DNA of 64,000 nucleotides from an uncultured Methanosarcinales archaeon (GCA_964544335.1 CAZJAJ010000004.1:67689-131688); one strand, 5' to 3'. Numbered from the stretch's first letter, positions 22,765-58,237 are shown. Notes: generated by a model not told the origin, from the letters alone. Numbers and translations: made by a program.

Positions 22765-22780
22765 GGAGACTAAAAATACC

Positions 22781-23296: not shown

Positions 23297-24168
23297 AGAA
23301 AGGCGTTAGCGTATCAATACTAAAAGAAATCACAAAAGATATGTGGATGATTAGAGTACTGCGTGCTCTACTTGGTGCATCTATTGTGTATTTGGCTGTG
23401 TATGTGATTACAATGTTGTTTACGTTGCCTACGCTTCCTATTGCGCTTTCTTTTGCGAGTTTGTATTTTATTACTGAACTTGTTAATGCTGCATCAGTTC
23501 ATCCTTTTGTTCAGGTTGAGAAGCAGTATCCTTCACTTGATGAAGAACTTCGAACGGTTCGTGACTCACTTGGTGAGGAAAATGAACTTGTTCTTGATTT
23601 GAGAAAAGATGTGTTTAAGAAAGCTAGAACGCTTATTGATATGGGTGACTTTGTTGATTTTAGGCAACTTACTGCTCGAACACTTTCTGTGTTCTTTTTG
23701 TCATTCTTAATTATTCTTATTGCATCGCTCAATGTTCGTATTGTTGATGCAGGTGAAGTGTATGATCTTGGTAAAAATTTACTTGATGATCTTCGTCAAG
23801 ATACGCTTAATGCAGGACGAGAACAGTTTCAAGTAGCCGGAGGAGATAATGTATTATCTAATCGATTCAAGAAGGTTGCTGCCATGGCAGGAATTAATGC
23901 TGGGGAGAATGAAGGTGGTGATCTCTTCGGGGAGGCAGAGCTTGCCGAACTGGGCGGAGAGAGACTTACGGTAGAGATTAGGCCTACTGATTTTGAGGTC
24001 AGTCTTGATGATTTTGAAGATGTACAAAAGAAAGATTTTCAAGACGTTGCTTTTACAGGAGAGGTGGAATCATTACAATCACTTGGACTTGAAGAAACTA
24101 TTAATGTTGAAGAGCAAGCTATTGTTAAACGATATTTTGACAAACTTGCACAGGAGGGAAGCTCATGA
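23293..24168 (+). CDS. membrane protein of MoxR/VWA operon
   Basis: 3 TM, VEKQYPSLDEELRTVRD segment, acidic C-terminus ending VKRYFDKL. Confidence 0.7.
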   Translation: MKKGVSVSILKEITKDMWMIRVLRALLGASIVYLAVYVITMLFTLPTLPIALSFASLYFITELVNAASVHPFVQVEKQYPSLDEELRTVRDSLGEENELVLDLRKDVFKKARTLIDMGDFVDFRQLTARTLSVFFLSFLIILIASLNVRIVDAGEVYDLGKNLLDDLRQDTLNAGREQFQVAGGDNVLSNRFKKVAAMAGINAGENEGGDLFGEAELAELGGERLTVEIRPTDFEVSLDDFEDVQKKDFQDVAFTGEVESLQSLGLEETINVEEQAIVKRYFDKLAQEGSS

Positions 24169-25091
24169 CGCGCTACAAAAATGTTTATGACTCTGTGGTA
24201 AAGGAAATCCACAAGGTCGTAGTTGGACAGGATGAAATGATCGAGCAGGTAATTGTTGCCTTGCTATGTAACTCAAATGCTCTACTTGAAGGGTACCCAG
24301 GTCTTGCTAAGACGTTAACTATTAACACCTTAGCACAGGTTATGGATCTTAAGTTTAGTCGTATTCAGAATACACCTGATCTTATGCCATCAGATATTAC
24401 TGGTACCTACATTATTACTGAGCAAAAAGGTGGACGGGCATTCTCTTTTCAGGAAGGACCTATTTTTGCAAATTTAGTACTTGCTGATGAGATTAATCGT
24501 GCAACACCTAAATCACAGTCTGCGTTTCTTGAAGCGATGCAGGAGAAGCAAGTTACTGTTGGTAAGAAAACGTTCAAACTTGATGATCCGTTCTTTGTAC
24601 TTGCTACACAGAACCCAATTGAACAAGAAGGTACGTATCCACTTCCTGAAGCTCAGGCAGATCGGTTCTTACTTAAGATTAATTTAGATTATCCTTCTGA
24701 GGAAGAAGAAATTGAAATTGTGCAGCGATTTACTGGTAAGAAGGACCCAAGTAATCCTAAAAAGATTCTTGATAAAAAGGGTCTTAAGAAACTGCAGGAA
24801 CTTGTGCGTGATATGCCAATTTCAAAAGATCTTGAGAAGGGCGTTGTAAAAATTATTGGAGCTACACGTAAGAATAAAACATTATTCCAGTATGGTGCGT
24901 CTCCTCGTGCGTCCATGTCACTTATTTTGGCATCAAAGGCACGAGCTTTGATTAAGGGAAGAGCTCACGTAAGTAGTGAGGATGTTAAGGCAATGGCAGC
25001 CCCGGTTCTTCGGCACAGAGTAATTTTAAGTTTTGATGCTGAACGAAAGGGCATGACTGTTGATGATGCGATTCAAAAGATAATCAGATGA
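24165..25091 (+). CDS. moxR: MoxR family AAA+ ATPase
   Basis: EGYPGLAKT, RIQNTPDLMPSDITG, DEINRA, ATQNPIEQEGTYPLPEAQADRF. Confidence 0.95.
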   Translation: MTRYKNVYDSVVKEIHKVVVGQDEMIEQVIVALLCNSNALLEGYPGLAKTLTINTLAQVMDLKFSRIQNTPDLMPSDITGTYIITEQKGGRAFSFQEGPIFANLVLADEINRATPKSQSAFLEAMQEKQVTVGKKTFKLDDPFFVLATQNPIEQEGTYPLPEAQADRFLLKINLDYPSEEEEIEIVQRFTGKKDPSNPKKILDKKGLKKLQELVRDMPISKDLEKGVVKIIGATRKNKTLFQYGASPRASMSLILASKARALIKGRAHVSSEDVKAMAAPVLRHRVILSFDAERKGMTVDDAIQKIIR

Positions 25092-42680: not shown

Positions 42681-43267
42681 AGATTAGTGGCGTTACACAG
42701 ATTACATACTTGGCAAAGGGTTCTCGCGGTCTTGTGTATACTGGAGTGTTTCGTGGAAAGAAGGTTGGTATTAAGGCACGCAACCCCACGTCAAAGGCAT
42801 CACTTACGCTTGCAAAGGAAGCATCTATGCTGCAAAAGGTAAATGCACTTGGCATTGGTCCTACGTTCTTGCGTCTTGGAAAGCATTATGTAATGTATGT
42901 GTTTGTTGAAGGGGTGCATATGGATGTGTGGGAGAAGACGGCAACTGATGTGCAAAAGAAACGTGTGTACAAGCGATTGTTTGCGCAGTGTTATGCGATG
43001 GACAAGATGGGACTGAATAAAGAAGAGATGCTTCGTCCGTATTCTAATGTAATTATTACAAAGGGCAATATTCCTGTGCTGATTGATTTTGAGCGAGCTC
43101 ATTTTAGTGAGCAGCCAAAGAATGTGACGCAGTTTGCATCCTATGTGATTAGTAAGTGTGGATTTAATAGTCTTAAGAAGAAAGAACTTTATAAGCTCAG
43201 TTCGCTGTATAAGCCAAATCCATCAAAAAAAATGTTTGATGAGCTTGTAAGAAAATGTCTACAGTAA
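42677..43267 (+). CDS. atypical Ser/Thr protein kinase-like protein
   Basis: KGSRGLVY Gly loop, VGIK, GIGP, NVII, LIDFE; ATGA overlap with the HemK2 gene. Confidence 0.75.
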   Translation: MKISGVTQITYLAKGSRGLVYTGVFRGKKVGIKARNPTSKASLTLAKEASMLQKVNALGIGPTFLRLGKHYVMYVFVEGVHMDVWEKTATDVQKKRVYKRLFAQCYAMDKMGLNKEEMLRPYSNVIITKGNIPVLIDFERAHFSEQPKNVTQFASYVISKCGFNSLKKKELYKLSSLYKPNPSKKMFDELVRKCLQ

Positions 43268-43962
43268 ATAACACTCATATTGATCAAAATTTTGTAGATA
43301 GAAGAACTAAGCGTCTTTTTGTGTGCCATGCTAAGAAGTTTATTTTTGCTGAAATACCAAAAGCAGGTTGTAGTTCTCTTAAATATGCCATTTTACAGCA
43401 TGATTTTCCAAAGCGTCTTACTAAAAACATTGACCAGATTCATAATCGGGTTGGTTATTATTTTAGTAATCCCAATGTAATTTCAACAGATGATTTAAAT
43501 CTTGAAAAATTTAAAGATTATACCACTTTCATAGTGTATCGAGATCCTGTTAAGAGGTTTTCTTCATTTTATAATGAAAAGATATGCTCAGATAGAACTA
43601 AATCAGTGTTTGTTGAAGATAATCATGCAAAAGGAATGAGTCCCATGCAGGTTCTTGATTTAGTTAAGAAGGAATTTCAAAAACCAATCCATAGACAAGA
43701 ACCTCATGTTCGTAAACAGATTCTATCTCATACTATACCTTTTGATTATGTGGTTGATTTAGGTGATCTTAATATGTTCATGAAAGAAAAGTTTGATGTT
43801 AGTCTTAAGGTATTAAATGCTAAGAAAAAGAGATATAGACTTACTGAGAAAGAAGCAGAGAGAGTAAAAGAGATATATGCTGATGATTATGCTATCAAGG
43901 TAACTTATCATCCGAAAACTGAAACTTTTTTTTCTCGTATACTAAAGAAGTTATTGAATTAA
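43255..43962 (+). CDS. sulfotransferase (Sulfotransfer_2-like)
   Basis: IPKAGCSS 5'-PSB and RDPVKRFSSFY 3'-PB motifs. Confidence 0.85.
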   Translation: MSTVNNTHIDQNFVDRRTKRLFVCHAKKFIFAEIPKAGCSSLKYAILQHDFPKRLTKNIDQIHNRVGYYFSNPNVISTDDLNLEKFKDYTTFIVYRDPVKRFSSFYNEKICSDRTKSVFVEDNHAKGMSPMQVLDLVKKEFQKPIHRQEPHVRKQILSHTIPFDYVVDLGDLNMFMKEKFDVSLKVLNAKKKRYRLTEKEAERVKEIYADDYAIKVTYHPKTETFFSRILKKLLN

Positions 43963-44361
43963 GTTGATGTTTTGATTGATCACTGTTGGGTTCATGCCAA
44001 TTAATTCATCTGTGAAGATAGATTGTGGTATTGGATTGTAAAGATAAATTTTCTTTTTCATTCTCCATGCAGTGTAGATTTCAAGAAATGTTGCGCCACC
44101 AATGTAGTTTTGCTGTCCGTTTTTTTCAAGATTGAGAATTAATGCTGCATCCGTTGGGGCGATGTTTTCTTCGTCTTTTCTGAGCATGGCTTTTTTCCAT
44201 TGTTGATGCTCTTCTTTTGACATGGATTTAAAGCGTTCTTCTTGCATGGGCTCTTCGTAGCTGTTTGGCAGGGTTACTTCGTGCCCGTTTGCTTCAAGTT
44301 GCTCTTTTATTTCTGGAATGTGTTGGTAGAAATGTTTTGAGCAGCCAATGAATATCTTCAT
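43951..44361 (-). CDS. nucleoside 2-deoxyribosyltransferase-like protein
   Basis: MKIFIGCS...DAALILN...YIGGATFLEI...KKIYL pattern. Confidence 0.55.
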   Translation of the reverse strand: MKIFIGCSKHFYQHIPEIKEQLEANGHEVTLPNSYEEPMQEERFKSMSKEEHQQWKKAMLRKDEENIAPTDAALILNLEKNGQQNYIGGATFLEIYTAWRMKKKIYLYNPIPQSIFTDELIGMNPTVINQNINLIQ

Positions 44362-45278
44362 TTTTTCTTAGATTTCTTGAGTTCTTTTTCAAGACCAAGC
44401 TTTTCTAGGAGTTCTTTGTACCTATTTCTAATGGTTACTTCAGTTACGCCTGCAACATCTGCTACTTCTCGCTGTGTTCTTCGCTCGTTGTGAAGAAGTG
44501 CTGAGACATAGAGTGCTGCTGCTGCAATTCCTGTTGGTCCTCGTCCTGAGGTAAGTTCTTTCTTTTGTGCTTGTTCTAGCACTTTGATTGCACGTGATTG
44601 TGCTTCAGGACTGAGCTTTAGTGCACTTGCAAATCTGCTAATGTAATCAACAGGATTTGATGGTAAGATACTAATCCCTAGTTCTCTTGTGATAAAACGG
44701 TATGTTCGTCCGATTTCTTTTTTATCAATATTTGATGCTTCTGAGAGTTCATCAAGTGTTCGTGGCACTTCGTGACGTCTACATGCTGCATAGAGTGCTC
44801 CTGCTGCAACGCTTTCCATTGATCGTCCTCGTACGAGTCCTCGTTGTACTGCAAGGGTGTAGATTCTTGCTGCTTCTTCTTCTACCGAAGCTGGGAGTCT
44901 TAGATAGGAAGATACTCGTTTTAATTCAGATAATGCAAGTTTAAGATTTCGTTCAATAGCCGTTGAGATTCTGTACTGCCATTTTCTTAGACGCATGAAT
45001 TTATTTCGGGATTTTTGTCCCATAGAAAATAAGTCGCCACGTTGACCAATTTCTGTCCCAAGACCTCTGTCATATTGTGTATAGGTCATTGGCGCGCCTG
45101 TTCTTCGCTTTTTATCAGCATCAGCGCTGTCGCCTTCGGTCCATTCCTGACCAAAGTCAACCATTTTTTCTTCTATTACAAGACCGCAGTCTCTACAAGC
45201 GATTTCACCTTTTTCTCGATTAATCGTTAGATTTACACTACTACATTCTGGACACTTTCTAATATATTCTCTACTCAT
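44358..45278 (-). CDS. tfb: transcription initiation factor IIB
   Basis: CPEC/CRDC zinc ribbon, RRTGAP, two cyclin repeats, TEVTIRNRYKEL; start taken at 45278. Confidence 0.97.
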   Translation of the reverse strand: MSREYIRKCPECSSVNLTINREKGEIACRDCGLVIEEKMVDFGQEWTEGDSADADKKRRTGAPMTYTQYDRGLGTEIGQRGDLFSMGQKSRNKFMRLRKWQYRISTAIERNLKLALSELKRVSSYLRLPASVEEEAARIYTLAVQRGLVRGRSMESVAAGALYAACRRHEVPRTLDELSEASNIDKKEIGRTYRFITRELGISILPSNPVDYISRFASALKLSPEAQSRAIKVLEQAQKKELTSGRGPTGIAAAALYVSALLHNERRTQREVADVAGVTEVTIRNRYKELLEKLGLEKELKKSKKK

Positions 45279-45481
45279 ACTGTGCTTCCCCCCAGTTGCA
45301 CCCATAAACTATATATATGAGATCGTGCCTTAGTTTATAAAGATTACGTATTTCTTGGTGTTTTTTTGCCGTTTATGACCCCTATTTCCGATACTACTGG
45401 TAATAGCAGGAGTTTCTATATTGTTGTTTATGTCAATTAGATTTAAATAGGGGAGTTGTCACCCAATGTAAATACGCTTAT

Positions 45482-46306: not shown

Positions 46307-47149
46307 TCATGTGTTTCTTGAGAAGATGTTTTGTATGAGTTCTACTGCCCCGGGGAGGTTCTGATCATTGTACTGCAAGGCATATCCGTTTTTTTGGGAG
46401 AGTTTACAGGCAAAATCAAAGAATTGCTCTTGTGCTTGTCTATTGTCTGGGACGCCCATGTTTTTTGCAACGTTGTCGTTAATGATGTTATTGAGTATTT
46501 GTGGTGAGGAGAGCTTTGTTAGTAGGGGATTATGTTCTTGTTTATAGGTTGGAAATATGAAGATGAGTTGTTTGTGGGTGCTTGTTTTTTGTGACATGGT
46601 GGGATTTTTGATGTTCTTGTCTTCTTGGTTTCGTATGCGTATGGAGGACATGAAGGGAATGATATCAAATCCATTTTGTGTTTCTTTTATGAAGATCATG
46701 TCATCACACTGAAGGTGAAAGCCTTGCGTGCTCATGAGGGTTGAGAGGGTTGATTTTCCTGACATGGATGGTCCTGAGAAAATGATTGATGCACGTTCAT
46801 TGGTCACTAGGGCTCCATGGATACGTTCGTATCCCATTGATGAGAGAATGCTACCTAATGGGCGTTGAATGATCATGTCTGCATCAAGTAGAAATGGGAG
46901 CTCAAGGTAGTTGCCATACACTTTCTTTTGTTTGAAGTCGATAAATGATTGTTCGAACGGAAAGCCGTTCTCTTCTGTGAAGGCGTTTTCTTTTTTGGTT
47001 GCAAGATAGAAGGTGATGGTAATTTGATCTTGTTGTTGTGTTTGTAGGTCACAGAGATGTTCTTCTATTATGTCAAGTATGGCCTTGCTGTCTGCGAAAA
47101 CTTCTATTTTGAGTCTATTGGTTTTGAATTCCTTGTAGTGCTCAAACAT
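46307..47149 (-). CDS. HPr kinase-like P-loop kinase (lasso/RiPP-associated type)
   Basis: IHGA, GPSMSGKST P-loop, CDDMIFI; 8-bp overlap with the GT4 gene. Confidence 0.8.
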   Translation of the reverse strand: MFEHYKEFKTNRLKIEVFADSKAILDIIEEHLCDLQTQQQDQITITFYLATKKENAFTEENGFPFEQSFIDFKQKKVYGNYLELPFLLDADMIIQRPLGSILSSMGYERIHGALVTNERASIIFSGPSMSGKSTLSTLMSTQGFHLQCDDMIFIKETQNGFDIIPFMSSIRIRNQEDKNIKNPTMSQKTSTHKQLIFIFPTYKQEHNPLLTKLSSPQILNNIINDNVAKNMGVPDNRQAQEQFFDFACKLSQKNGYALQYNDQNLPGAVELIQNIFSRNT

Positions 47150-48440
47150 CTTTTTTCTCCAAAAGTGGTTTTATTTGCTCGTTGTAGATTTTTTCTTCGT
47201 TGTAGCGTCTTCGTATGTCTATTGCCATTTGTTGTGCTTTGTTTTTTTTGAGCTCTTTTATGATGTCTTTTGCAATTTTTTTGTAAAATGATTTATTTTT
47301 CTTGTAGTATTCTGCAAAAAGTTCCTGCGGGTTATGTTCTTGCTTCCAATTTACTCCATATGTACTTCTCATTTTTCCTCTAAGATCTGCGAAAGGATAA
47401 TATAGTGCATGTTCTCCACCCATTTCTTTTAGTGCAGGTGTGTTGTTGTTGAGTATGCAGAGATTACTCATAATTGCTGCTTCTTGGAGAATGAGACTAC
47501 ATGCTTCTGCAGTTGATGGGTGTATGAATACATTTGATAGAGAAAAGAGTTCCTGCATTACTTCTGAACTACACCCTCCCATGAGTTTTTCGTCAACTTC
47601 TGTGGTGAATGTGACGTATGATTCCTCAAGACCTATTTTTTGCATAAGACTTTTTGTTTTTAGATGACCTAGTCCTTCACCCACTCTTCCACCATATGCT
47701 TCTGCAAGTATTACTCTGGCATTTTTTCCTTGATCAACGAGTGCTTTTGTAATGAAAAGAATGTGTTCTATTTGTTTAAATCCTCTATCTAGGCTTGTTC
47801 CAAACACGATGGAAACGTCTGCTTGAAGTATATTACTTTTTTGTACTATTTTTTCAGTTAATGAATGCAGATTAAGATATTCAGGACTCACTCTTGTATT
47901 GTGAACAAATGTGACATTTTTTTTAGGCATATCATACATTTTTGCAAAACCACTCACGTGTTCTTTTGCAACTGTTACAAGAATCGAAGATGGTATTGGG
48001 TTAAAGCGGAGTTCGTGAGGAAATGTTGGGTTTTTTTGATGTTGTTGCGCGGTTGAATGAAACCAGTGTAACCACTTGACTTTTGGGTATTTGTTGATGT
48101 ATTTTCTTATAGCTTTATTCACGTGAAGGAATTTTGGGTGATAGATGAGATCGTGTTCCACAACTACATCTATGTCTTCTAGTTCTTTTTCTAGTGCTTT
48201 GTAAAATTTTTCTACTTGTTTTTCAAACTCCTCTTCTGTTTCTTCTTTAAGATAATCAACGTTAGGTAGTTCTGAAATGTAGGATACATTAGGCAATTTT
48301 TTCCATTGGGGACATGTTTTTGGAAGAATAACGCGAACAGTATGTTCTTTTGAAAACATCCGTATGTGGGATTTTACTACAGAATTCACACTATAATTTG
48401 GGTCCCAAGAATACGTTAGATGAACTATTGCAACATTCAT
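47142..48440 (-). CDS. GT4-family glycosyltransferase
   Basis: MNVAIVH start, HDLIY, HWFHS, PSTAEACSLILQEA (E-x7-E); start taken at 48440. Confidence 0.8.
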   Translation of the reverse strand: MNVAIVHLTYSWDPNYSVNSVVKSHIRMFSKEHTVRVILPKTCPQWKKLPNVSYISELPNVDYLKEETEEEFEKQVEKFYKALEKELEDIDVVVEHDLIYHPKFLHVNKAIRKYINKYPKVKWLHWFHSTAQQHQKNPTFPHELRFNPIPSSILVTVAKEHVSGFAKMYDMPKKNVTFVHNTRVSPEYLNLHSLTEKIVQKSNILQADVSIVFGTSLDRGFKQIEHILFITKALVDQGKNARVILAEAYGGRVGEGLGHLKTKSLMQKIGLEESYVTFTTEVDEKLMGGCSSEVMQELFSLSNVFIHPSTAEACSLILQEAAIMSNLCILNNNTPALKEMGGEHALYYPFADLRGKMRSTYGVNWKQEHNPQELFAEYYKKNKSFYKKIAKDIIKELKKNKAQQMAIDIRRRYNEEKIYNEQIKPLLEKKDV

Positions 48441-48444
48441 ACAT

Positions 48445-48499
48445 GAAGTAAAAAAAAGGAGATTAAAAATATTCCCACACCAGGGTATACCTTTACTCC
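48445..48499 (-). terminator. possible stem-loop / T-tract between precursor and GT4
   Basis: Minus-strand GGAGTAAA pairs with TTTACTTC (one G-T), with an 8-nt T run. Confidence 0.3.
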
Positions 48500-48501
48500 A
48501 C

Positions 48502-48711
48502 CTATGGTGATGTGGTAGGCGGAGATGTAGTAGGTGGAGATGTAGTTCCTGGAGACGTGGTTCCTGGAGACGTGGTTCCTGGAGATGTAGTTCCGCCACC
48601 AGTTGTTCCAGGAGATGTCGTTCCGCCGCCTGTTGTTGCTGTTGCCATAACCACTTCCTTTACTTCACCGTGACTAGTCAATTTTGGTTTTTCGTATGTT
48701 TCTTTGTTCAT
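48502..48711 (-). CDS. RiPP-like precursor peptide: lasso-type leader + (TTSP)x7 core
   Basis: YEKPKLTSHGEVKEVV matches YxxPxLxxxG; 2 bp downstream of the RRE gene; repeat differences sit at synonymous positions in this frame. Confidence 0.85.
   Translation of the reverse strand: MNKETYEKPKLTSHGEVKEVVMATATTGGGTTSPGTTGGGTTSPGTTSPGTTSPGTTSPPTTSPPTTSP
48505..48621 (-). repeat. coding tandem repeat, mostly 15-bp units encoding (G/P)TTSP
   Basis: Units such as ggttcctggagacgt / agttcctggagatgt repeated on the + strand. Confidence 0.9.
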
Positions 48712-48713
48712 AA

Positions 48714-48980
48714 TTATTTTCTCTGTAAAATCTCTTTTGATGTTAATTCCATGATGAGTTCATCCACATCAGTGGTAAGTGTCTTTTCTGCAACTTCAAA
48801 TTGACCCATTAGCTCTTTTGTAATGTCCTGATTATTTTTTCCACTAATTACGTGTTCAAATATTCTTGAAGCAGTCTTATTGAGACTAAAGTGTTTTCCG
48901 CTTTGCGTATTAAGAATTACTGTGTGATCATTCATCGTTCTGTGGATGATATTGTCACTTAATACTAAACTTTCAGTCAT
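48714..48980 (-). CDS. PqqD-family RiPP recognition element (RRE)
   Basis: 88 aa; VILNTQSGKHFSLNKTASRIFE...ITKELMGQFEV...DVDELIMEL. Confidence 0.92.
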   Translation of the reverse strand: MTESLVLSDNIIHRTMNDHTVILNTQSGKHFSLNKTASRIFEHVISGKNNQDITKELMGQFEVAEKTLTTDVDELIMELTSKEILQRK

Positions 48981-49108
48981 TGTGTAATTATGCTAGAAGA
49001 CCTATTTAAATATTTCTATTTGCAAATAGGTGTTCTCGACGTTAATTGCGCATCTAAGACCTTTTAAACCACAAGAATATTTATATTTGTTTTTCACTGC
49101 TCAGTGTT

Positions 49109-50155
49109 ATGGGTTATCGGGGGATTTTAGTTGATGTTATTAAGAACGAGTTTAATGAGGATACTTCTTATTCCCCTACCGAGGTAGATAAGGTTTACCT
49201 GCCTGAAGAGGTAGTAAGAAATAAGTATGTTGTGCGGTTGTTACTTTATTATCTTGACAAGATGAATGTTACTTGCTTATCTTCACCAAGTGTATCATTT
49301 TTACTAAGTCAACAACTGGTCACACACTCTAAGAATGAGATGTATGTACAGGTTACAAAAGAAATTGTCTCTTTGCTCGAATTAAATGGTGTTGAATGCG
49401 TACTCATGAAAGGTATAGCTCTGCTAGATACATTGTATGATGGGGACCTAGATCAGCGCAACATGAGCGATATTGACTTATTTGTTCCGAGTAATACGTT
49501 ACTGTTCTCTAAAGATCTTCTTGTGAAAGAAGGATTTGTTGTTATTGAAGAGCGTGAACATGAGATTGGATTTGTAAGAGATGGTGTTCTAGTAGAATTA
49601 CATTCTGATTTTCATGAAGGATATGTTCCTTTGGATCCATCTACTCACAAGATTGATTTTTTTGGAAATACTATTTCTGTATTTACTCCTGAGGAAATGC
49701 TGCTTCTACTCATTCTTAATTTTTATAGGGACTCTTTTGGAACGTTCTTCTTCTCTCAGTCAGATAAAAGAGTTGGTGATGATATCTTTTTTTCAACGCT
49801 TCCCTTTATTGCAGAGATTAGGCGATTTGTTCACAAAAAACCTATTGATTATGAACGTTTATTGTATCTTACGAAGAAGTGTCCGGTTCCTCATGCTGTG
49901 TTTGGTGTATTGCTTGTGATCAAGGAATATTTTAGAGAAGATATTCCTGATGAATTTTTTGATCATGATAGGCGACTTGTAAGATTAGGTGATGCCATGA
50001 AAGAAGATTCTTTTGCTTCATGTTTTATGTTGCTGCGAAGATATTGTATTATCCACGAGAGTATTCATCTATTGAAATCTCCTCTACTTTTATTTCGTAA
50101 ATGTATTTCATTTTTTTCAAGGTCATCTTTAAGGAGGCATTATGAAGACACATAA
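49109..50155 (+). CDS. nucleotidyltransferase (NTP_transf_5-like)
   Basis: LMKGIAL...RNMSDIDLFV, VELH motifs. Confidence 0.85.
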   Translation: MGYRGILVDVIKNEFNEDTSYSPTEVDKVYLPEEVVRNKYVVRLLLYYLDKMNVTCLSSPSVSFLLSQQLVTHSKNEMYVQVTKEIVSLLELNGVECVLMKGIALLDTLYDGDLDQRNMSDIDLFVPSNTLLFSKDLLVKEGFVVIEEREHEIGFVRDGVLVELHSDFHEGYVPLDPSTHKIDFFGNTISVFTPEEMLLLLILNFYRDSFGTFFFSQSDKRVGDDIFFSTLPFIAEIRRFVHKKPIDYERLLYLTKKCPVPHAVFGVLLVIKEYFREDIPDEFFDHDRRLVRLGDAMKEDSFASCFMLLRRYCIIHESIHLLKSPLLLFRKCISFFSRSSLRRHYEDT

Positions 50156-50615
50156 AGGGGAGTATGCGCTTAAGGTAAGGAGTAATAAGAGCATGAGGCC
50201 TTTACTTCATGTGGGTGATGTGTTGTTGTATTCTCATCGTCCCATTAAACGAGGTGATGTAGTATTATATGCTGCTAAAAATAAGGTGGTTGTTCACAGA
50301 GTGCTTAGTTTTACTATGCGACATGGAGAGCAATCCTTATTGTGTAAGGGTGACAGTATGGCTTTTGAAGACCAGTGGATTATTCCAAGAAAGTGTATTT
50401 TGGGTGTTTTAGATACTATCGTTCGTGGTAAGAAGGTTATTTCACTTCATTCGGGAAAATTTCTTTATGTGAATCGTATCCTTTACATTCTTTCAAGAGT
50501 GCACTTTTGTTTTCGCTCAATGCTGTCAAGACGTTTGAGAAAAAAATATGTTAAACCACTCCATAAGATTAATTTGTTTTTTTTAAAATGTGTAGAAGTT
50601 ATTTTTAGACTATAA
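50142..50615 (+). CDS. S24/S26-family peptidase
   Basis: SMRPLL, GDVVLY, VVHRVL, KGD; overlaps the nucleotidyltransferase gene by 14 bp. Confidence 0.85.
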   Translation: MKTHKGEYALKVRSNKSMRPLLHVGDVLLYSHRPIKRGDVVLYAAKNKVVVHRVLSFTMRHGEQSLLCKGDSMAFEDQWIIPRKCILGVLDTIVRGKKVISLHSGKFLYVNRILYILSRVHFCFRSMLSRRLRKKYVKPLHKINLFFLKCVEVIFRL

Positions 50616-52253
50616 CTGTCGCTTTATTTTTGATTGTGCTACTTTTTTAATCTCATCATAGGTGTTTTGTGTTATATTTTCAATTAATTCTTCTTTTTCT
50701 TTAGTGAATGTGTAATTTGATTTTTTATGTCCTACCCAATTTCTTCCTTCTATTTGTTGGAGGATGTTCTCTTCTTTTCCATGAGGATCTATTGAGAGAA
50801 ATTTATAGAGAGCTTTTAGTACATTTTTTTGAGGATCAATGAGATCTTCATATTCTATTATGAATGTATTGTTTGGATAAAGTAGAGAAAATTCCAACAT
50901 GCAGTTGTTAACTTCTTTCCAATCCTCTGAAAGTAATTTGGTTGATCTCTGTACTTCTGCCATTTTGAATGACCTTCGATAGCTTTCAATTACTGCTTTT
51001 GGATTTCTTACCAAAAATACAAACTTTGCTTGCGGATAGAGTGAGATTAGAAATTCGAATGTCTTTCTATCTCTGTCCCCAAACCGTACTTCCTTATACC
51101 CCCAGTATTTTTTTTTGAGAGGATTAAACAATGATTCAATGAAAGTTCTACATGAACGTTTAATGTGATCATCGCCAAACCAATTTGTCCATGCCTGCCA
51201 TACACTAGGATTCTTTAATTGTGCAGTTGCTTCTTTTAGGTTATTGAGTGGTTTCTTTTTCAGTGTAAGATTTTGTTCTTCATAGAGTGTATAATATATT
51301 TTAGTGAGGTGATGCATTATGTCTCTGTTTTCACCCCAGATGGTTATGTCAGAATGAGCATTTAGTATCCGTTGCAATAATGTTGTCCCACTTCTTGCCA
51401 TACCATACATGAAGAGAGGAGATTCTGGGTTAGGTACGTGTGTTTTAATGGATACAAGGATTGATTTTGCTTTTTCTTTTATTTTTAGAGGAATTGTTTT
51501 CTTTTTTTTCAATTTTAATGTGGTGTATGTGTTGTATAGCAGGTACATTTCTTTAGAGTAAATTGGGTGTATTGAATGTGCTTTTTTTGAAAGAAGTATA
51601 TCTGTTTTTTCTTTTCTACTTTTTACGTAGACGTTTCTGTGTCTTCCGTTGCATGCTGTGAGGTCAATCCCGTTTTGTTTGAGAATGTCTCCGACCATCA
51701 TATCTTCTGTTGATGATTCGGGAATTATTTTTTCGTATTTTTCTTTTTTGAGTGGTACGCGTTCTCCATACCACCAAGGATTTCCTATTCCTTTTTGAAA
51801 ATCATAGGTTGCAAGTGTATCTACTGCTTTTTTGCTTAGCATATAACAGCCACCTGATGCCCATGTAATTCTTCTTTTTTCTTTTCGTCTGCTGTTATTT
51901 ACAATGACACCATAATAGTCACATTTTGGAATTGTATCTTCTAACCATTCATTTGGAAGAAAGAGCGTGTCGTCATCAATTTTGAAGACATAATCAAATT
52001 TTTTGTTTTTTGAGAGGTATTTTGCTAGTTGGTGTGTTTTTTTTGCAAGGTCTTGATAGGTGTCTTCACATTCTACAAAGAGCCTTTTTTCTTTTTCATC
52101 ATAATGTTCTTTTTTTGCACCTTCTACAAAGAACCATTCTACGTTATCTGGGATTAATTTTGCCCATGTTTCTCTTACTGCTTTTTGTCTTGTTTCTCTG
52201 TGTGCCTTGCAAGAGGTGATTACGAAAATGACTTTTTTATTCTTTAATTGCAT
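50610..52253 (-). CDS. GT31-like glycosyltransferase fused to a sulfotransferase
   Basis: N-half: RETW, EDTYQDLAKK, KIDDD, ASGGCYMLS, EDMMVG; C-half: GMARSGTT, WGYKE, VRNP...S, YEDL. Confidence 0.82.
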   Translation of the reverse strand: MQLKNKKVIFVITSCKAHRETRQKAVRETWAKLIPDNVEWFFVEGAKKEHYDEKEKRLFVECEDTYQDLAKKTHQLAKYLSKNKKFDYVFKIDDDTLFLPNEWLEDTIPKCDYYGVIVNNSRRKEKRRITWASGGCYMLSKKAVDTLATYDFQKGIGNPWWYGERVPLKKEKYEKIIPESSTEDMMVGDILKQNGIDLTACNGRHRNVYVKSRKEKTDILLSKKAHSIHPIYSKEMYLLYNTYTTLKLKKKKTIPLKIKEKAKSILVSIKTHVPNPESPLFMYGMARSGTTLLQRILNAHSDITIWGENRDIMHHLTKIYYTLYEEQNLTLKKKPLNNLKEATAQLKNPSVWQAWTNWFGDDHIKRSCRTFIESLFNPLKKKYWGYKEVRFGDRDRKTFEFLISLYPQAKFVFLVRNPKAVIESYRRSFKMAEVQRSTKLLSEDWKEVNNCMLEFSLLYPNNTFIIEYEDLIDPQKNVLKALYKFLSIDPHGKEENILQQIEGRNWVGHKKSNYTFTKEKEELIENITQNTYDEIKKVAQSKIKRQL

Positions 52254-52865: not shown

Positions 52866-52915
52866 TTATTCTTTGTATACAATAAGTTTAAAAGTGATTT
52901 TACTTGTTATGTAGT

Positions 52916-54595
52916 ATGCTCATGACCATTTTAGGATTGTTATTGTTACTGCTTCCTTTGCTGTGCTTTAAACTGCATAAAGCTCTTGGATGTATTGTAG
53001 TTGTGCAACTTGCTATTGGTCTTATTACGCAATTATTTGGTGTGTTTACGTATCCTGTTGTGTTTGGGCTGAATCTGGTTGTTGCATTGTTTTTAGTGAG
53101 GAAAGTCAGGTTTAGGATTAATTGGACGGTTATTGCTGTTGCTGCTATTTTGTTGTTTTCGTTTTATGGCGTGCATTATAATTACACTGGTGATGCAGTT
53201 TTTTCAGGTCAGCAACTTGATACTGTTGAAGGGATGCACTATCCTCTGCCCTATGCTTCGGATGAGTGGTATGGTGCATCAATTGCACAGCATGCTATTG
53301 AAACAGGAGGATTGCCGCTTGATCAACCGCTTCGAGAAGATATCTTCTTTATTAATTTGCAAATTGCATTTCATTCTCTGCTTGCTGAAGTTTTTATGCT
53401 TCTTGATCTTGATGTGGTGTGGAATTTTGGGGTTGCTGTTATGTTGTTTTCCACTGCCATTTGTCTTGTTGTGTATGCATTGTTGATGTTGTTTGGCGTT
53501 AGACCATCTGCTGCCATCTTTGGTTCGTTATTCACTTCGTATGTTGCGTCAAGCGGAAATATATTCACGTTATGGAACGTTATTCCTGCAAGCGTTGGTA
53601 TTTTGACGTTATTGCTTGCGTATTGTTTCTTAGTTGAAAAGAATACTCGTTACTTTTTCTTATTTGGTTTTCTGACATTAATCTTTTATCCTCCTTTTGG
53701 TGTGTTTTTACTTCCTGCAGCGTTTGTTGGACTTTCTAAAGAGTATCGTATGCGTTTTATGTATGTGGTGCTTGGTAGCGGTGTAGGTCTATTTCTTGTT
53801 GCTCTTCTTCTTGCTCCAAGATTGCAATCTGCATGGTTGTTTGTTTGGAATAAAGTATACTATCTCTCCTACACGCCCATTGGGATTGCGTATTTATTTC
53901 CCTGGGTAATCATTCCTCCTCTTTGTTTGGTGTTTGTGCTCTTTTCTTATGGGGAACTCAAGAAACGAACATGGTTTATGTACACTCTTGGTGTTGGCCT
54001 TGCGTATTGGTTGGTGTATCATTTTACGATTCAGTTCTTTATTATTAGTCAAGAACGAGTGGTGTATGTTGCTGCAGTATTACTTGTTATTGCGTGTTCA
54101 CTTGGTTTTCATCGTCTGAGTAATTTATGGAAGAAATATGATCGTTATGTTGTGGTTGGGCTGTTACTTCTTTTTGCTGTGTTTTCTTTTACCTATACAG
54201 AGGATGATCGGTTTAGAGACATGCCACTTATTGCTCACGAGAATGGAAATGTATATCGTTATGTACCTGGACCTACTGCTAGCGCCTATTTTGATGATAG
54301 TGATGCTGATTTATTTTCCACACTTGAACCATCAGTATTTTTATCAGACCCGTGGAAATCAACGGTTATTTCCATTGCTCTTGGGCATACTCCCACAACA
54401 TTAAAATCAGGTACGTTTGGGTATAAGGAAGAAAAATATCCTTATTTTTTGAATCAGAATTGTGATGGGAAGAAGAAGATACTTGACCGAGATGATATTG
54501 CATATGTGTATGGTGCACCTGAAGAGTGTTCTTTCTTAAGGTTGATAGGTATTTCAGATGAAGGATATCATTTGTATGTGTATGATGAAAATTAG
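52916..54595 (+). CDS. polytopic membrane protein, GT-C-like glycosyltransferase
   Basis: More than 10 TM, acidic YASDEWYG motif in first external loop, soluble C-terminal domain with SDPW. Confidence 0.6.
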   Translation: MLMTILGLLLLLLPLLCFKLHKALGCIVVVQLAIGLITQLFGVFTYPVVFGLNLVVALFLVRKVRFRINWTVIAVAAILLFSFYGVHYNYTGDAVFSGQQLDTVEGMHYPLPYASDEWYGASIAQHAIETGGLPLDQPLREDIFFINLQIAFHSLLAEVFMLLDLDVVWNFGVAVMLFSTAICLVVYALLMLFGVRPSAAIFGSLFTSYVASSGNIFTLWNVIPASVGILTLLLAYCFLVEKNTRYFFLFGFLTLIFYPPFGVFLLPAAFVGLSKEYRMRFMYVVLGSGVGLFLVALLLAPRLQSAWLFVWNKVYYLSYTPIGIAYLFPWVIIPPLCLVFVLFSYGELKKRTWFMYTLGVGLAYWLVYHFTIQFFIISQERVVYVAAVLLVIACSLGFHRLSNLWKKYDRYVVVGLLLLFAVFSFTYTEDDRFRDMPLIAHENGNVYRYVPGPTASAYFDDSDADLFSTLEPSVFLSDPWKSTVISIALGHTPTTLKSGTFGYKEEKYPYFLNQNCDGKKKILDRDDIAYVYGAPEECSFLRLIGISDEGYHLYVYDEN

Positions 54596-55629
54596 TTATT
54601 CTTTTTACTTTTGATACCTAGTGTTGAGAGCATGAATGCTGAGAAAATGGTTTGCATACCTATAAGTCCGAATGTGACCGTGAGCAATGGATTTGTGGTG
54701 AAATAGTATACGCTTGATAGGATGATGATTGCTCCAACAATTGCTACTTTTTCTATGCTTAGATGTTTGAATAAGTGTTCTAATCTGTTGTCTTTTTGAT
54801 TGAGATAGTTGTGCATATAGATTTTTGAGAACACAAAAAAGAAGAGGAGTTGGTATCCAAAGAGTGTTGACATGGCCATTGCTGCGCTTAAGAGTCTTCC
54901 TGGAAAATAGATAAATCCAACAATTCCAAAGAGCATGAAGTAGAGTGCGGGCAGTAGGAAAAGAATATCTGGTGTGTAAAGCAACATGTAGCGCAGATGT
55001 CTCCATCCGTCTCTAAAAGAGGATAGTTTTGATTCTCCTATGCGCGGATTGTAGGCAATTGGTATTTGTTTTGTTTTTAGTTTGTGTTTTGCTACTGCTG
55101 CAACCATTTCTGTTGCATATTCCATGCCTGTTGTTTGTAGGTTTAATGTATCATATGCTTCTTTTGTAAATGCACGCATACCGCAGTGCACATCTCTTAC
55201 GTTTGTTTTCATAAACCATCGTGCTAGTGTTGAGAGTACTGGGTTACCGATGTATTTGTGATGCCAAGGCATTGCTTTTTTGTGCATGCGTCCTGAGAAT
55301 CTATCTCCTATGACAAAATCATATCCTTTTTGTAGTGCGTGTATGAACTGTGGTATTTTATTAAAGTCGTATGTGTTATCACAATCCATCATGATAATGT
55401 ATTTACCCTTTGCTGCTTCTATTCCGTGTATGAGTGCATTACCATAGCCGTCTTGATCGTGTTTTATTACTCTTGCACCTAATTTTTTTGCAATTATTGG
55501 ACTATTATCTGTTGAACTGTCTGAAAGAATTATTTCATGAGGTATTTTTGCTAAAATGTTTTGTATTTTTTTAATGCATACTGGAACTGCTTTTTCTTCG
55601 TTTTGACAGGGTAGAACGATTGAGATCAC
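54592..55629 (-). CDS. GT2 glycosyltransferase, dolichol-phosphate mannose synthase-like
   Basis: SIVLPCQNEE, DSSTD, GYGNAL, MDCD, GDRF, DVHCGMRAF; C-terminal TMs. Confidence 0.9.
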   Translation of the reverse strand: MISIVLPCQNEEKAVPVCIKKIQNILAKIPHEIILSDSSTDNSPIIAKKLGARVIKHDQDGYGNALIHGIEAAKGKYIIMMDCDNTYDFNKIPQFIHALQKGYDFVIGDRFSGRMHKKAMPWHHKYIGNPVLSTLARWFMKTNVRDVHCGMRAFTKEAYDTLNLQTTGMEYATEMVAAVAKHKLKTKQIPIAYNPRIGESKLSSFRDGWRHLRYMLLYTPDILFLLPALYFMLFGIVGFIYFPGRLLSAAMAMSTLFGYQLLFFFVFSKIYMHNYLNQKDNRLEHLFKHLSIEKVAIVGAIIILSSVYYFTTNPLLTVTFGLIGMQTIFSAFMLSTLGIKSKKNN

Positions 55630-55767: not shown

Positions 55768-56736
55768 GTGTTAAAAAAACTAACTCAACGAGCCCTGCCG
55801 TATGTTGCGGGATTAGGATTTCTTTTAACGAGTAGCGCGTATGCACAAGATACTTCTTCTGATGCAGTCATTGCAAGAGTTGTTGTTCCAAAACCACTTA
55901 TTGTTGAACCACCAAAAGAAGGAAGGCCAGATCGGCTCACGAGTAGGCTTCTTGGAGCAAATTTAGATGGTGTTGAAGCAAGTCCCTTATATGATATTAT
56001 GCATGAACAACTGGATGAGCATGAATTAGTCAATTATAGAATTTCACCTGATTATAATTCCCTTACTTTTGATTTACCTATTGTAGGTAGAGTTGCTTCT
56101 GTTCCTATTGATGAATTAAATCACAAAATGGAAGAGAGCATGAAAGGTATGCGAATGGGGGACAATTATAATGATGGATGGAGTAATCCTGTTCGAGATG
56201 AAATCAGAGAAGAGTATCAAAATGATTTAGAAGGCATTGGTAAGGATGTACTTTCTGACTGGGGGAAGGAATTCAAACCTATGGCCATGAATATTTTAGA
56301 AGAAAGTTCTTTCTTTAATGCACTTAGTCTTGGTAATCGAGGTTTTTTTGCGAATAAATTTAAAGTGCATGGGACTGAAAAAGATGAAGAGAAAGGGTAT
56401 GGACGTAGTTCCTCATCTAACTATGAAATTGATAGATTTAGTACGGGTTTTTCTGTTGGTGGAAGCATTGGTAATCCCTCAGTTGGTGTGAAAGTTCGCA
56501 CCTCATATTTATTTGAAGTAAATCTTGATGGAGAATATGAGTTAAAAGATGGACTAAAAACTGAAGCCATCGTACCTCTTTATCGGGGTCGTACACGAGA
56601 AGGTACTATTGATCTTAGTGTGTATGGTTCATATGAAGAAGAAGATGGTTCTTCTGCAGGTATTCGTCTAGATGCTCCTCTTGCACCCATTACTGAGCGG
56701 ATTGGTCGCATTTTTACGCGTAAGAAAGGTAAATGA
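55768..56736 (+). CDS. putative secreted protein
   Basis: Signal peptide ending AYA-Q; beta-strand-like C-terminal half. Confidence 0.6.
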   Translation: MLKKLTQRALPYVAGLGFLLTSSAYAQDTSSDAVIARVVVPKPLIVEPPKEGRPDRLTSRLLGANLDGVEASPLYDIMHEQLDEHELVNYRISPDYNSLTFDLPIVGRVASVPIDELNHKMEESMKGMRMGDNYNDGWSNPVRDEIREEYQNDLEGIGKDVLSDWGKEFKPMAMNILEESSFFNALSLGNRGFFANKFKVHGTEKDEEKGYGRSSSSNYEIDRFSTGFSVGGSIGNPSVGVKVRTSYLFEVNLDGEYELKDGLKTEAIVPLYRGRTREGTIDLSVYGSYEEEDGSSAGIRLDAPLAPITERIGRIFTRKKGK

Positions 56737-56788
56737 GGTGATTGTTTGCACCACTGATTTTTATGTAGTGTAATGAATTCTTGGGGTT

Positions 56789-58237
56789 ATGGTAAATGAT
56801 AGAGCACTTGGTTTACATCCAGATCATGTTGGATTTTTAGTTGGACATAATTTTTACTCTCCTTCACATGCAGCTGAAGGATTTATTGGAGCAACCCCTG
56901 CCAACAATTTACGTGGTGTTGTTGGTCTTGAAGAAAGACTACATGGCGTTGTTGAGAGGATTTTAGATGATGATAAGAGAGCAGAGGAAACACCTGTGCT
57001 TTCTTATTTAGTTAGAAAAATAGATGAACAAGGTGAACGTTTTGATTTAAATGCTATTCGTGCATTGGTAAAGAAAGCATATGGTACGAGTAAACTTATT
57101 GATCAAGAAGCAGTGACTGTTGATCGAATTCCTAAAGAGAGTATGCGTGGTCAGTTTGTTGGCACGGTGAAGACTCGACGAAGTAAGTTTGATCGTACTC
57201 ATCAAGATCATACCATGAGCGTGTATGATGTGTTAGTTGATGATGCTAGTGATGGTCAGTACATTTCTTTTGCAGGTGGAACTGAACATGCACAAACACA
57301 TTTGAGACGTGGTTCACATTGGTCACGAGGTATTTCACATGAATCTGACTTTATTGACTTGTTAAGAAGGAATGGGAATACGACATATGATGAGGGCATT
57401 CATGTTGTTGATTATGCAAGTAGTGCATTTTTAACCTATTTACATCAAATGCAGAGCGTTGGACTTCTTGGAAGCAAAGGCGATATTTCTGATGATGCTT
57501 TTGTGTTTATGCCATTTGATTTTAGTAAACGAGATGATCTTGCTTTTGAAGTACTTGCTATGCGGTATGCTTCTGTAAAAGATATTAAGGGATCTGGTTC
57601 ATCTCTTAGTGGTAAGGCGACTCTTATTGATGTTGATCGGCACATGATGGGCAAGAGAGGATTTGTGCAACCTTTTATGAAAGAGTTGTATGCGTCTGGT
57701 GGGGCTACACGAAGTGTACTTCCCAAAGGCAAACGTCTTGATAATCATACGTGGGCCATTATGCAAGCATGGGAAGAGCATGCGTTTGGTGAAGGAAGAG
57801 ACTTTAGAGGGTATTCGCTTGAATTTCCTGGATGCGAGTATGAAACGACATCAATTGTATTTGATTTTCATAATGGGAAGCATGATGTGAGTATGCGGCT
57901 ACTTGTTGATGATCACTTTGGTCTTCCTATGGTGATGTACAAAAGTTTTGTTCGAGATGAGTATTATGGTACATGGAGACATAGTGAGAAGGATCCTGCT
58001 AATCGTGTCAATATATCAGATGACTTACGTACACGTGATTGGGTATATCGACATCATGAAGATGTTGATTGGCATTCTGGAAGAGAAAATGTGAGTAGTA
58101 TCTTTCAACCAACTGATGCAATTCTTGAGCGTGCGAGTGAACTTACGCGTGCTGGAGGTAAACGTGGCGTTAGTGCAGGAGAATTTAGAAAACGATATGT
58201 GAATAATTATTTTAGAATAAAGAATAAAGTAAAATGA
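56789..58237 (+). CDS. hypothetical protein
   Basis: 482-aa ORF with host-like codon pattern; no family recognised. Confidence 0.65.
   Translation: MVNDRALGLHPDHVGFLVGHNFYSPSHAAEGFIGATPANNLRGVVGLEERLHGVVERILDDDKRAEETPVLSYLVRKIDEQGERFDLNAIRALVKKAYGTSKLIDQEAVTVDRIPKESMRGQFVGTVKTRRSKFDRTHQDHTMSVYDVLVDDASDGQYISFAGGTEHAQTHLRRGSHWSRGISHESDFIDLLRRNGNTTYDEGIHVVDYASSAFLTYLHQMQSVGLLGSKGDISDDAFVFMPFDFSKRDDLAFEVLAMRYASVKDIKGSGSSLSGKATLIDVDRHMMGKRGFVQPFMKELYASGGATRSVLPKGKRLDNHTWAIMQAWEEHAFGEGRDFRGYSLEFPGCEYETTSIVFDFHNGKHDVSMRLLVDDHFGLPMVMYKSFVRDEYYGTWRHSEKDPANRVNISDDLRTRDWVYRHHEDVDWHSGRENVSSIFQPTDAILERASELTRAGGKRGVSAGEFRKRYVNNYFRIKNKVK

Follow-up and report, generated by a model that had tools for sequence, protein, structure and literature searches.

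A GT31 glycosyltransferase-sulfotransferase fusion encoded beside a putative leader-guided peptide cluster in a Methanosarcinales genome

A single open reading frame (ORF) in a 64,000-nucleotide stretch of DNA from an uncultured Methanosarcinales archaeon (GCA_964544335.1 CAZJAJ010000004.1:67689-131688; the whole stretch is referred to as the window, and positions are counted from its first letter) encodes a glycosyltransferase of family 31 (GT31) joined to a 3'-phosphoadenosine-5'-phosphosulfate (PAPS)-dependent sulfotransferase. The product is very probably a real, intact and rare bifunctional protein that both adds a sugar and sulfates. The role favoured for it, at roughly even chances, is the tailoring of the product of a leader-guided peptide pathway encoded by the adjacent genes. 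The gene and its parts are as follows.

50610..52253, minus strand: GT31-sulfotransferase fusion gene, 547 amino acids (aa), ATG start, one unbroken ORF
51519..52253, minus strand: GT31 domain, aa 1-245, with RETW, the DxD motif D93-D95, GG.Y.LS at 134-140, the xED motif E183-D184 and His229
51429..51518, minus strand: Lys-rich linker, aa 246-275, as read from the sequence
50610..51428, minus strand: PAPS-dependent sulfotransferase domain, aa 276-547

All of the motifs listed in the initial annotation of this ORF were found, namely RETW (aa 27-30), KIDDD (91-95), SGGCYMLS (133-140) and EDMMVG (183-188) in the N-half, and GMARSGTT (284-291) and VRNP (415-418) followed by Ser424 in the C-half. 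Its assignment of the two halves to GT31 and to the PAPS sulfotransferases was borne out by Pfam and PDB profile matches, with both catalytic sets intact. No other family was obtained for the N-half, as PF01762, PF02434 and the PDB profile all give GT31. Hydropathy analysis detected no membrane or hydrophobic segment in the 547 aa. Hence, the protein would be soluble and cytoplasmic, unlike the animal GT31 enzymes.

For the N-half, the Pfam family Galactosyl_T (PF01762; cut-off 23) scored 32.7 bits with the whole protein and 36.2 bits with this half alone, and Fringe (PF02434; cut-off 21) scored 16.1 and 22.9 bits, respectively. A profile of 19 N-half relatives, when compared with the sequences in the PDB, matched only GT31 structures, over the whole domain and with scores far better than chance. 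B3GALT6 (2.5e-16) was the best match, and C1GalT1 (5.2e-16), B3GALT5, B3GNT2, B3GLCT, CHSY3 (chondroitin synthase 3) and Manic Fringe were also matched. Trp30, Asp93, Asp95, Gly134-Gly135, Glu183-Asp184 and His229 are invariant across the 19-sequence alignment, and in B3GALT6 and C1GalT1 the residues aligned with D93-D94-D95 and E183-D184 are the DDD and ED motifs. As judged from its sequence, the N-half should be an inverting GT-A enzyme of family GT31 that, with the help of a divalent metal (DxD), transfers a single sugar in beta linkage from a UDP-sugar onto a sugar acceptor; for its donor sugar and linkage, we infer rather than observe.

The C-half matches Sulfotransfer_3 (PF13469) at aa 279-489 with 86.5 bits (Pfam cut-off 27). 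It includes the 5'-phosphosulfate-binding (5'-PSB) loop R287-S-G-T-T291, Glu308 in 'WGEN', Lys387 in 'GYKEVRFG' and the 3'-phosphate-binding (3'-PB) pair R416...S424, and R287-S-G-T-T291, E308, K387, R416 and S424 are all invariant in the alignment of C-half relatives (A4). Among solved proteins, those closest to it in PDB sequence comparison are the polyketide sulfotransferase domains of OLS and CurM, along with TPST1/2. The top 24 matches found by Foldseek were all sulfotransferases, with TPST1/2 first (2.5e-9), and its other matches were OLS, CurM, the mycobacterial Stf9 and Stf1, and heparan-sulfate 3-O-sulfotransferases. As a member of the Sulfotransfer_3 clade, to which TPST and the CurM sulfotransferase also belong, the C-half should act as a PAPS-dependent O-sulfotransferase on a glycan, probably on the sugar just added. 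The sequence 'GEN' at the catalytic Glu is common to all three GT31-linked sulfotransferases, while the others checked, which are the stand-alone and PqqD-fused sulfotransferases (see below) whose motif was retrieved, have 'GEH'.

Structure prediction with AlphaFold2 (AF2) from the single sequence gave a mean predicted local distance difference test (pLDDT) score of 35 and was unusable, and a 25-row alignment was used instead. In the resulting model, the C-half is good (pLDDT >90 across most of aa 280-547) and a helix is predicted in the linker at aa 256-271, but the centre of the N-half is poor. Ten-residue block means are 67-89 at aa 1-96, and pLDDT falls below 50 at aa 97-104, 106-136 and 154-232, because the alignment of the N-half is shallow. 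With this model, low in confidence at the centre of the N-half, Foldseek matched B3GalT6 at only 7e-4. This region, together with the occurrence of the fusion as a singleton cluster on one contig, could be taken to indicate an artefact, either a merger of two genes by misassembly or frameshift, or a protein in which one half is a non-catalytic scaffold like COSMC. Such an origin is very improbable. The reading frame is continuous through the linker, and the protein keeps the conserved DxD and xED motifs and every PAPS-binding and catalytic residue, unlike COSMC, an inactive GT31 member marked by the loss of DxD and xED (PMC7185993). The window GT31 half retains both. An assembly artefact was rejected as the main explanation given that a protein from an unrelated assembly, P0026, is colinear with the window protein over both domains.

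P0026 (504 aa) was the only other protein with the same two-domain layout among 1.84 billion representative proteins, for which an exhaustive HMMER scan gave 4044 matches. It is 31% identical to the window protein and has a shorter linker. No full-length relative emerged from a word-indexed search of 5.8 billion proteins, which returned only four N-half relatives, and a chimeric two-domain profile query did not return the 40%-identical relatives, which were given by the exhaustive HMMER scan alone. Stand-alone relatives of the N-half (P0027, P0029 and P0033, each ~240 aa) and of the C-half (P0025, P0028 and P0030, each ~280 aa) share ~40% identity with the respective half. Other combinations include P0068 (1309 aa), which consists of TPR repeats, GT31, a GT2-type domain and a sulfotransferase of the same subfamily, and P0047, in which the same GT31 subfamily is joined to a methyltransferase. 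GT31 and this sulfotransferase subfamily are therefore a recurrent pair, either joined or adjacent elsewhere (P0026, P0068 and the locus L149).

Neighbour-joining trees of both halves were poorly resolved, with the N-half nearest to the stand-alone P0027 and the C-half nearest to the stand-alone P0025 and P0030. In these comparisons the sulfotransferase of P0026 comes only 119th of 151, and a single origin of the fusion or several origins would both fit. Phage collections yielded no match, and plasmid collections yielded only distant single-domain matches. The GC content is 33.4% for the fusion gene and 30.2% for a second sulfotransferase gene in the window (see below), as compared with 38.2% for the whole window, and the low values of both would be compatible with acquisition from elsewhere.

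The fusion gene is the rightmost of seven genes packed within 46307-52253, on the left of which lie a TFB gene and a housekeeping deaminase gene, the latter forming the boundary. The other genes in this region are listed here.

46307..47149, minus strand: HprK-related P-loop kinase-like protein, 280 aa; GPSMSGKST ... CDD
47142..48440, minus strand: GT4/GT-B-like glycosyltransferase, 432 aa from the ATG at 48440 (start re-assigned); very divergent
48502..48711, minus strand: precursor peptide, 69 aa, comprising the leader MNKETYEKPKLTSHGEVKEVVMATA and a 44-aa core
48714..48980, minus strand: PqqD-type recognition element for RiPPs (peptides synthesised by the ribosome and modified after translation), 88 aa; Pfam PF05402, 45 bits
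49109..50155, plus strand: PF14907 (NTP_transf_5) nucleotidyltransferase, 348 aa; 83.1 bits, cut-off 31.2
50142..50615, plus strand: signal-peptidase-I (S26) homologue, 157 aa; candidate leader peptidase

The TTSP-repeat peptide reported beside the fusion gene is real (48502..48711, minus strand) and accompanies the PqqD gene (48714..48980, minus strand), its ATG lying 2 nt after the PqqD stop codon. Its leader includes a YxxPxL motif (YEKPKL) and ends in A-T-A, which would fit the -3/-1 rule (AxA site) of signal peptidase I. NCBIfam lasso leader models scored 18.9 (cut-off 19) and 24 (cut-off 33) with the precursor, and the lasso PqqD chaperone models scored 52 (cut-off 70) and 42 (cut-off 80) with the PqqD protein. 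The core is made up only of T18, G10, P9 and S7 in GTTSP-type repeats, encoded by 15-nt tandem repeats in the DNA; thus 25 of its 44 residues are Ser or Thr, and Tyr is absent. At 48441-48501, between the precursor stop and the start of the GT4-like gene, the coding strand carries an oligo-T run (TCTCCTTTTTTTTACTT), which could be an archaeal terminator or attenuator that raises the precursor transcript relative to those of the enzymes.

The peptidase homologue matches TIGR02228 (53.5 bits, cut-off 51.85) and weakly the Pfam S24 family, and retains Ser17, His52 and the KGD box. It has no N-terminal anchor or hydrophobic segment, and its ORF start cannot be moved further upstream. The 3' ends of the peptidase gene and the fusion gene overlap by 6 nt. 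PDB sequence searches with the GT4-like and PF14907 proteins gave no match. The genes at 46307-50615 form a RiPP-like cluster that brings together a lasso-type leader, PqqD, a putative HprK-like kinase, PF14907 and an anchor-less signal-peptidase-I homologue in an archaeal host. A lasso peptide cluster was considered and rejected: no AsnB-like ORF was found in the 64-kb window (phmmer with a single AsnB query, E up to 10) and Pfam scans detected no B2 protease among the annotated ORFs, and without a cyclase in 64 kb or a B2 protease in the cluster this is not a lasso cluster.

In the pathway proposed here, PqqD would bind the YEKPKL leader of the 69-aa precursor, and the HprK-like kinase, the PF14907 nucleotidyltransferase and/or the GT4-like enzyme would put the first phospho-sugar or sugar on Ser or Thr residues of the core. 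The GT31-sulfotransferase would then extend and afterwards sulfate the core glycans, and the anchor-less signal-peptidase-I homologue would cut after MATA. The order of the steps and, above all, the acceptor are what we infer, and whether the TTSP peptide is the scaffold is evenly poised. The sole candidate initiators are the GT4-like, kinase-like and nucleotidyltransferase proteins, as no GT27-like initiating enzyme was found among the cluster and neighbouring genes scanned with Pfam.

The link to the peptide is drawn for several reasons. The genes are packed, 25 hydroxyl groups of the core could serve as acceptors, and the neighbourhood shows no sign of any other tailoring chemistry. PqqD and the precursor are separated by only 2 nt and the leader scores near the cut-off of a lasso-leader model. 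Lasso pathways use an HprK-like kinase and PsmN on the C-terminal Ser. Further, relatives of the sulfotransferase half are themselves linked to recognition elements elsewhere. In L001, a high-GC bacterial polysaccharide locus that encodes the C-half relative P0002, two sulfotransferases of this subfamily occur with PqqD, an HprK-like gene and two PF14907 genes, as well as GT4 and GT2 genes, a Wzx flippase and a pyruvyl transferase. The L001 PqqD protein (10047-10481, minus strand) carries a C-terminal tail with the leader-like sequence YQKPKL, which places a recognition element and a leader-like sequence in one chain. In four C-half relatives (P0035, P0072, P0083 and P0095) the sulfotransferase is fused to a C-terminal PqqD, and P0073 is a sulfotransferase-GT4-PqqD fusion (L151 83-2233) followed by a Sulfotransfer_2 gene. 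P0062 is also among the C-half relatives named as PqqD-fused, and there are at least five such relatives. Descriptions of recognition-element-sulfotransferase fusions were not found in the literature searched.

The second sulfotransferase gene of the window (43255-43962) belongs to the same family as the gene that follows the P0073 fusion, and pairwise comparison of the window GT4, PqqD and Sulfotransfer_2 proteins with the corresponding parts of P0073/L151 revealed only family-level similarity. A 71-aa ORF after P0073 does not resemble a precursor, as far as so short a contig allows a judgement. The combination of a YxxPxL leader with a tail rich in S, T, P and G was found nowhere else in the 150 related loci searched.

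These findings bear on the suggestion, made when the sequence was first read, of a sulfomucin-like product. It is plausible and gains from the occurrence of PqqD, kinase and PF14907 genes at L001 and from the five or more PqqD-fused sulfotransferases, with the TTSP peptide as a candidate scaffold. The likeness to mucin extends to the Ser/Thr/Pro-rich tandem-repeat core and is one of analogy only. No GT27-type initiator was seen among the genes scanned, and the leader is of the lasso type.

Several observations weigh against the peptide as the substrate. The kinase and GT4 assignments are weak and under the family cut-offs: the kinase-like protein scores 35.8 bits with HprK_rel_A (cut-off 200) and 16.8 with Hpr_kinase_C (cut-off 33.3), with its matches to ScmC and HprK_rel_B also far under the NCBIfam equivalog cut-offs, and the GT4-like protein scores 19.7 bits with Glyco_trans_1_4 and 16.8 bits with Glycos_transf_1, both under the Pfam cut-off. 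The fusion gene is transcribed as a unit of its own, which converges on the peptidase gene and lies outside the PqqD-precursor operon. Neither the loci of the nearest relatives of both halves (39-44% identity) nor that of P0026 include a recognition element, and the PqqD-fused sulfotransferases rank 14th or lower among the C-half relatives, the best sharing 34% identity. The PqqD/HprK/PF14907 module was found in only one (L001) of 150 related loci, by insensitive home-made profiles built from few sequences (two or three seeds; two to six overall). No exporter and no PAPS-synthesis genes are present within the window, and an AglJ-like synthase and a membrane protein beside the fusion gene fit ordinary archaeal surface glycosylation.

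The absence of PAPS-synthesis genes had been noted at the outset and was confirmed by a motif search of the 64 kb, which revealed no APS (adenosine-5'-phosphosulfate) kinase, CysD/CysN or ATP-sulfurylase motif, the only match being an EF-1alpha-like GTPase. The genes flanking the cluster that need to be considered are as follows.

52904..54595, plus strand: polytopic membrane protein, 563 aa, with ~13 membrane segments and a C-terminal soluble domain (hydropathy)
54592..55629, minus strand: AglJ-like GT2 of the dolichol-phosphate (Dol-P)-hexose-synthase type; PF00535, 100.7 bits
43255..43962, plus strand: second sulfotransferase (Sulfotransfer_2), 235 aa; PF03567, 46 bits, cut-off 22

The AglJ-like protein scores 146 bits with the NCBIfam AglJ model (cut-off 325) and 126 bits with that for Dol-P-hexose transferase. 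Nothing in Pfam, NCBIfam or the PDB matched the 563-aa membrane protein, which may be either an exporter or a transferase of the GT-C type and whose membership in the system is uncertain. Together the two resemble a lipid-sugar synthase with a GT-C-type transferase. The second sulfotransferase gene lies ~2.3 kb to the left of the cluster, beyond the TFB gene, and its link to the cluster is likewise uncertain.

Every readable genomic context of the close relatives is a sugar-assembly locus. Overall, the context genes encode glycosyltransferases, pyruvyl transferases, sugar-nucleotide enzymes, APS kinase or CysDNC, and Wzx/Wzy or ABC exporters, and the contexts are listed below.

L144 (P0026 contig, 1-21515): 30%-GC glycan island with three further sulfotransferases, RmlA/B/D-type genes, GT2, a GT7-like gene, pyruvyl transferase and APS kinase, and with a GT31-GT29 fusion, NeuB, CMP-sialic-acid synthetase, GT29, GT32 and methyltransferases
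L145 (P0030): ABC2 exporter, pyruvyl transferase, GT1, GT2 and APS kinase
L147 (P0025): pyruvyl transferase, another sulfotransferase and two GT2 genes
L149 (P0029, a GT31 relative, 41% identical): directly after a 745-aa sulfotransferase-GT2 fusion gene
L150 (P0027): between a ribonucleotide-reductase gene and an HNH gene, with a phage-like look
L140, L141 and L143: Wzy, Wzx and GT4 genes, several sulfotransferases and CysD/CysNC

In L144, many animal-like enzyme families occur together, and four sulfotransferase families are present. The best long locus with a GT31 relative, L031, is an ordinary bacterial neighbourhood and provided no useful context. The initial annotation had proposed that one polypeptide extends and sulfates a glycan, which fits these sugar-assembly loci, several with APS kinase. 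The stricter possibility that such genes occur only at polysaccharide loci and never with a recognition element holds for P0026 and for all examined relatives of the GT31 half; the sulfotransferase relative P0002 at L001 departs from it.

The same enzyme may serve another acceptor, either a dolichol-linked precursor of N- or O-glycans for surface-layer (S-layer) and other surface proteins, or an exopolysaccharide unit, with its position beside the peptide genes an accident of a compact genome. This is a possibility of some weight, at odds somewhat longer than even. Sulfated N-glycans are known on haloarchaeal S-layer proteins, which counts in its favour. The closest relatives and P0026 are found in glycan islands with Wzx/Wzy or ABC2 exporters, pyruvyl transferases, APS kinase and sialic-acid genes, and none of those loci has a recognition element. 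In the window, the fusion gene is separately transcribed and converges on the cluster, at 0.65 to 3.4 kb to its right come the AglJ-like Dol-P-hexose synthase and the membrane protein with its 13 segments, and the second sulfotransferase is outside the cluster. However, the annotated part of the window contained no oligosaccharyltransferase, flippase or sugar-nucleotide genes. Fusion or linkage to PqqD elements recurs in the sulfotransferase subfamily, and the Ser/Thr-rich core of 44 residues, for which no other tailoring is obvious, is encoded 1.9 kb from the fusion gene.

If the peptide is the scaffold, the sulfate could also be carried by the peptide itself, with the C-half acting in the manner of TPST on Ser or Thr of the core and the GT31 half glycosylating other positions, so that the two halves share the scaffold and not the sugar. 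The best structural matches of the C-half are indeed the peptide sulfotransferases TPST1 and TPST2; P0035, P0072, P0083 and P0095 are fused to the peptide-binding PqqD without a glycosyltransferase; and known RiPP sulfation is on the peptide, as in RaxX and the sulfonated lanthipeptides (PMC11143521). However, known RiPP and TPST sulfation is on Tyr, which the core lacks, the nearest sulfotransferase relatives sit in sugar loci, and the fold also covers glycolipid and heparan-sulfate sulfotransferases. Fusion to a glycosyltransferase in three proteins further argues for consecutive steps on one glycan. Sulfation of the peptide is accordingly unlikely, and placement of the sulfate on sugar rather than on peptide is the somewhat better bet.

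Tailoring of the adjacent peptide remains the favoured role, and more may be ventured from it. Tentatively, the cluster at 46307-52253 would make a new kind of ribosomal product, whose core is densely glycosylated or phosphoglycosylated in the cytoplasm, extended and sulfated, and released by a soluble signal-peptidase-I homologue. As a corollary, the sulfotransferase subfamily, including its PqqD-fused forms, would amount to a class of RiPP tailoring enzymes, widespread but undescribed, that depend on a recognition element. Such a product would be a miniature sulfated peptide of mucin- or proteoglycan-like character. If the peptide is the acceptor, this would be the first ribosomal peptide with an extended and sulfated glycan and one of very few archaeal RiPP pathways, with a lasso-type leader and recognition system re-used without a lasso cyclase, and sulfated mucin-like glycopeptides would become accessible through a compact set of genes. 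On a conservative view, GT31 and its cognate sulfotransferase are naturally joined here, which is rare, in a protein that is soluble and without a Golgi anchor and hence attractive as a tool for the synthesis of sulfated beta-1,3-linked glycans. The repeated PqqD fusions of the sulfotransferase subfamily in any case point to unexplored peptide-directed sulfotransferases.

Other features of the window were recorded. Directly to the right of the glycosylation genes, two ORFs (322 and 482 aa) at 55768-58237 on the plus strand have no family match, and the first has a hydrophobic, signal-peptide-like N-terminus, MLKKLTQRALPYVAGLGFLLTSSAYAQ. Two over-long tRNA genes on the minus strand, a tRNA-Lys at 2847-2944 (98 nt) and one at 10254-10372 (119 nt), probably bear introns; the latter was found by Rfam and missed by ARAGORN. 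These intron-type tRNAs, together with TFB (44358-45305), L31e and S19e, identify the window as archaeal. Bacterial-type MutS and MutL genes lie side by side at 3576-7759 (plus strand) on this archaeal contig. A BatA/von Willebrand-A/MoxR-AAA block, which includes DUF7406-7408 and DUF7502 proteins, is found at 18638-25091 (plus strand), and a Fic/DOC-domain protein (54 bits) is encoded at the left window edge (175-1155, minus strand).

The GT31 half shares its family and the RxxW, DxD, GG.Y.LS and xED motifs with the animal enzymes (C1GalT1 T-synthase, B3GALT5/6, B3GNT2, Fringe and the chondroitin synthase domains), and inverting beta-1,3 transfer onto a sugar acceptor would be expected for it too. 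Unlike them, the window protein is soluble, cytoplasmic and archaeal, with no type-II anchor or stem, a domain of ~240 aa and a fused sulfotransferase, and its GT31 half belongs to a subfamily of prokaryotes and viruses marked by a 'WWYG' insert. With other Sulfotransfer_3 enzymes (the TPSTs, CurM/OLS, Stf1/Stf9 and the rhizobial NoeE), the C-half shares the 5'-PSB, the 3'-PB, the catalytic Glu and Lys and the fold, and differs in having 'GEN' in place of 'GEH', in its fusion to a glycosyltransferase and in the nearby core peptide that lacks Tyr.

The archaeal Agl system relies on cytoplasmic glycosyltransferases, soluble or peripheral, for the assembly of its glycans, which can be sulfated. 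The AglJ-like gene near the fusion is a point of likeness, whereas AglB and a flippase are not in the annotated window, a recognition element and a precursor lie next door, and GT31 is, to our knowledge, not a described Agl component. In Gram-positive serine-rich-repeat adhesins, the GT4 enzymes GtfA/GtfB act first and soluble glycosyltransferases extend the glycan in the cytoplasm before export. The window genes would be analogous in the cytoplasmic O-glycosylation of Ser/Thr-rich repeats with a GT4-type enzyme acting first, although the window GT4-like protein has no detectable similarity to solved GT4 structures in a PDB sequence search. The adhesin system differs in its very large cell-wall substrates and SecA2/Y2 export, with no leader or recognition element and no sulfation.

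Glycocins (SunS-type GT2) and sulfated RiPPs (RaxX/RaxST and the sulfonated lanthipeptides) are likewise ribosomal peptides tailored by a glycosyltransferase or a PAPS sulfotransferase. They differ in bearing a single sugar, added to Cys, Ser or Thr by a GT2, or Tyr-O-sulfate. We know of no glycosylated or sulfated RiPP that combines GT31 extension with sulfation, and of none that is archaeal.

The lasso pathways of paeninodin (PadeK) and pseudomycoidin (PsmK/PsmN) have in common with the window a YxxPxL leader, PqqD, a putative HprK-like kinase and a nucleotidyltransferase, as PsmN presumably belongs to PF14907. In phosphorylated lasso pathways, the HprK-like kinase phosphorylates the C-terminal Ser, and uncharacterised sulfotransferase genes occur in some of the clusters (PMC8498205). 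The pseudomycoidin protein PsmN, an uncharacterised NTP transferase, is required to add hexose to the phospho-Ser (PMC6993621). The window differs from these pathways in its 44-aa T/S/P/G repeat core, which does not end in Ser, in having no cyclase in 64 kb, in the signal-peptidase-I homologue that stands in the place of the leader protease, in its archaeal host, and in the added GT4-like and GT31 enzymes. By analogy, the gene set resembles that of the phospho-glycosylated lasso pathways without the cyclase.

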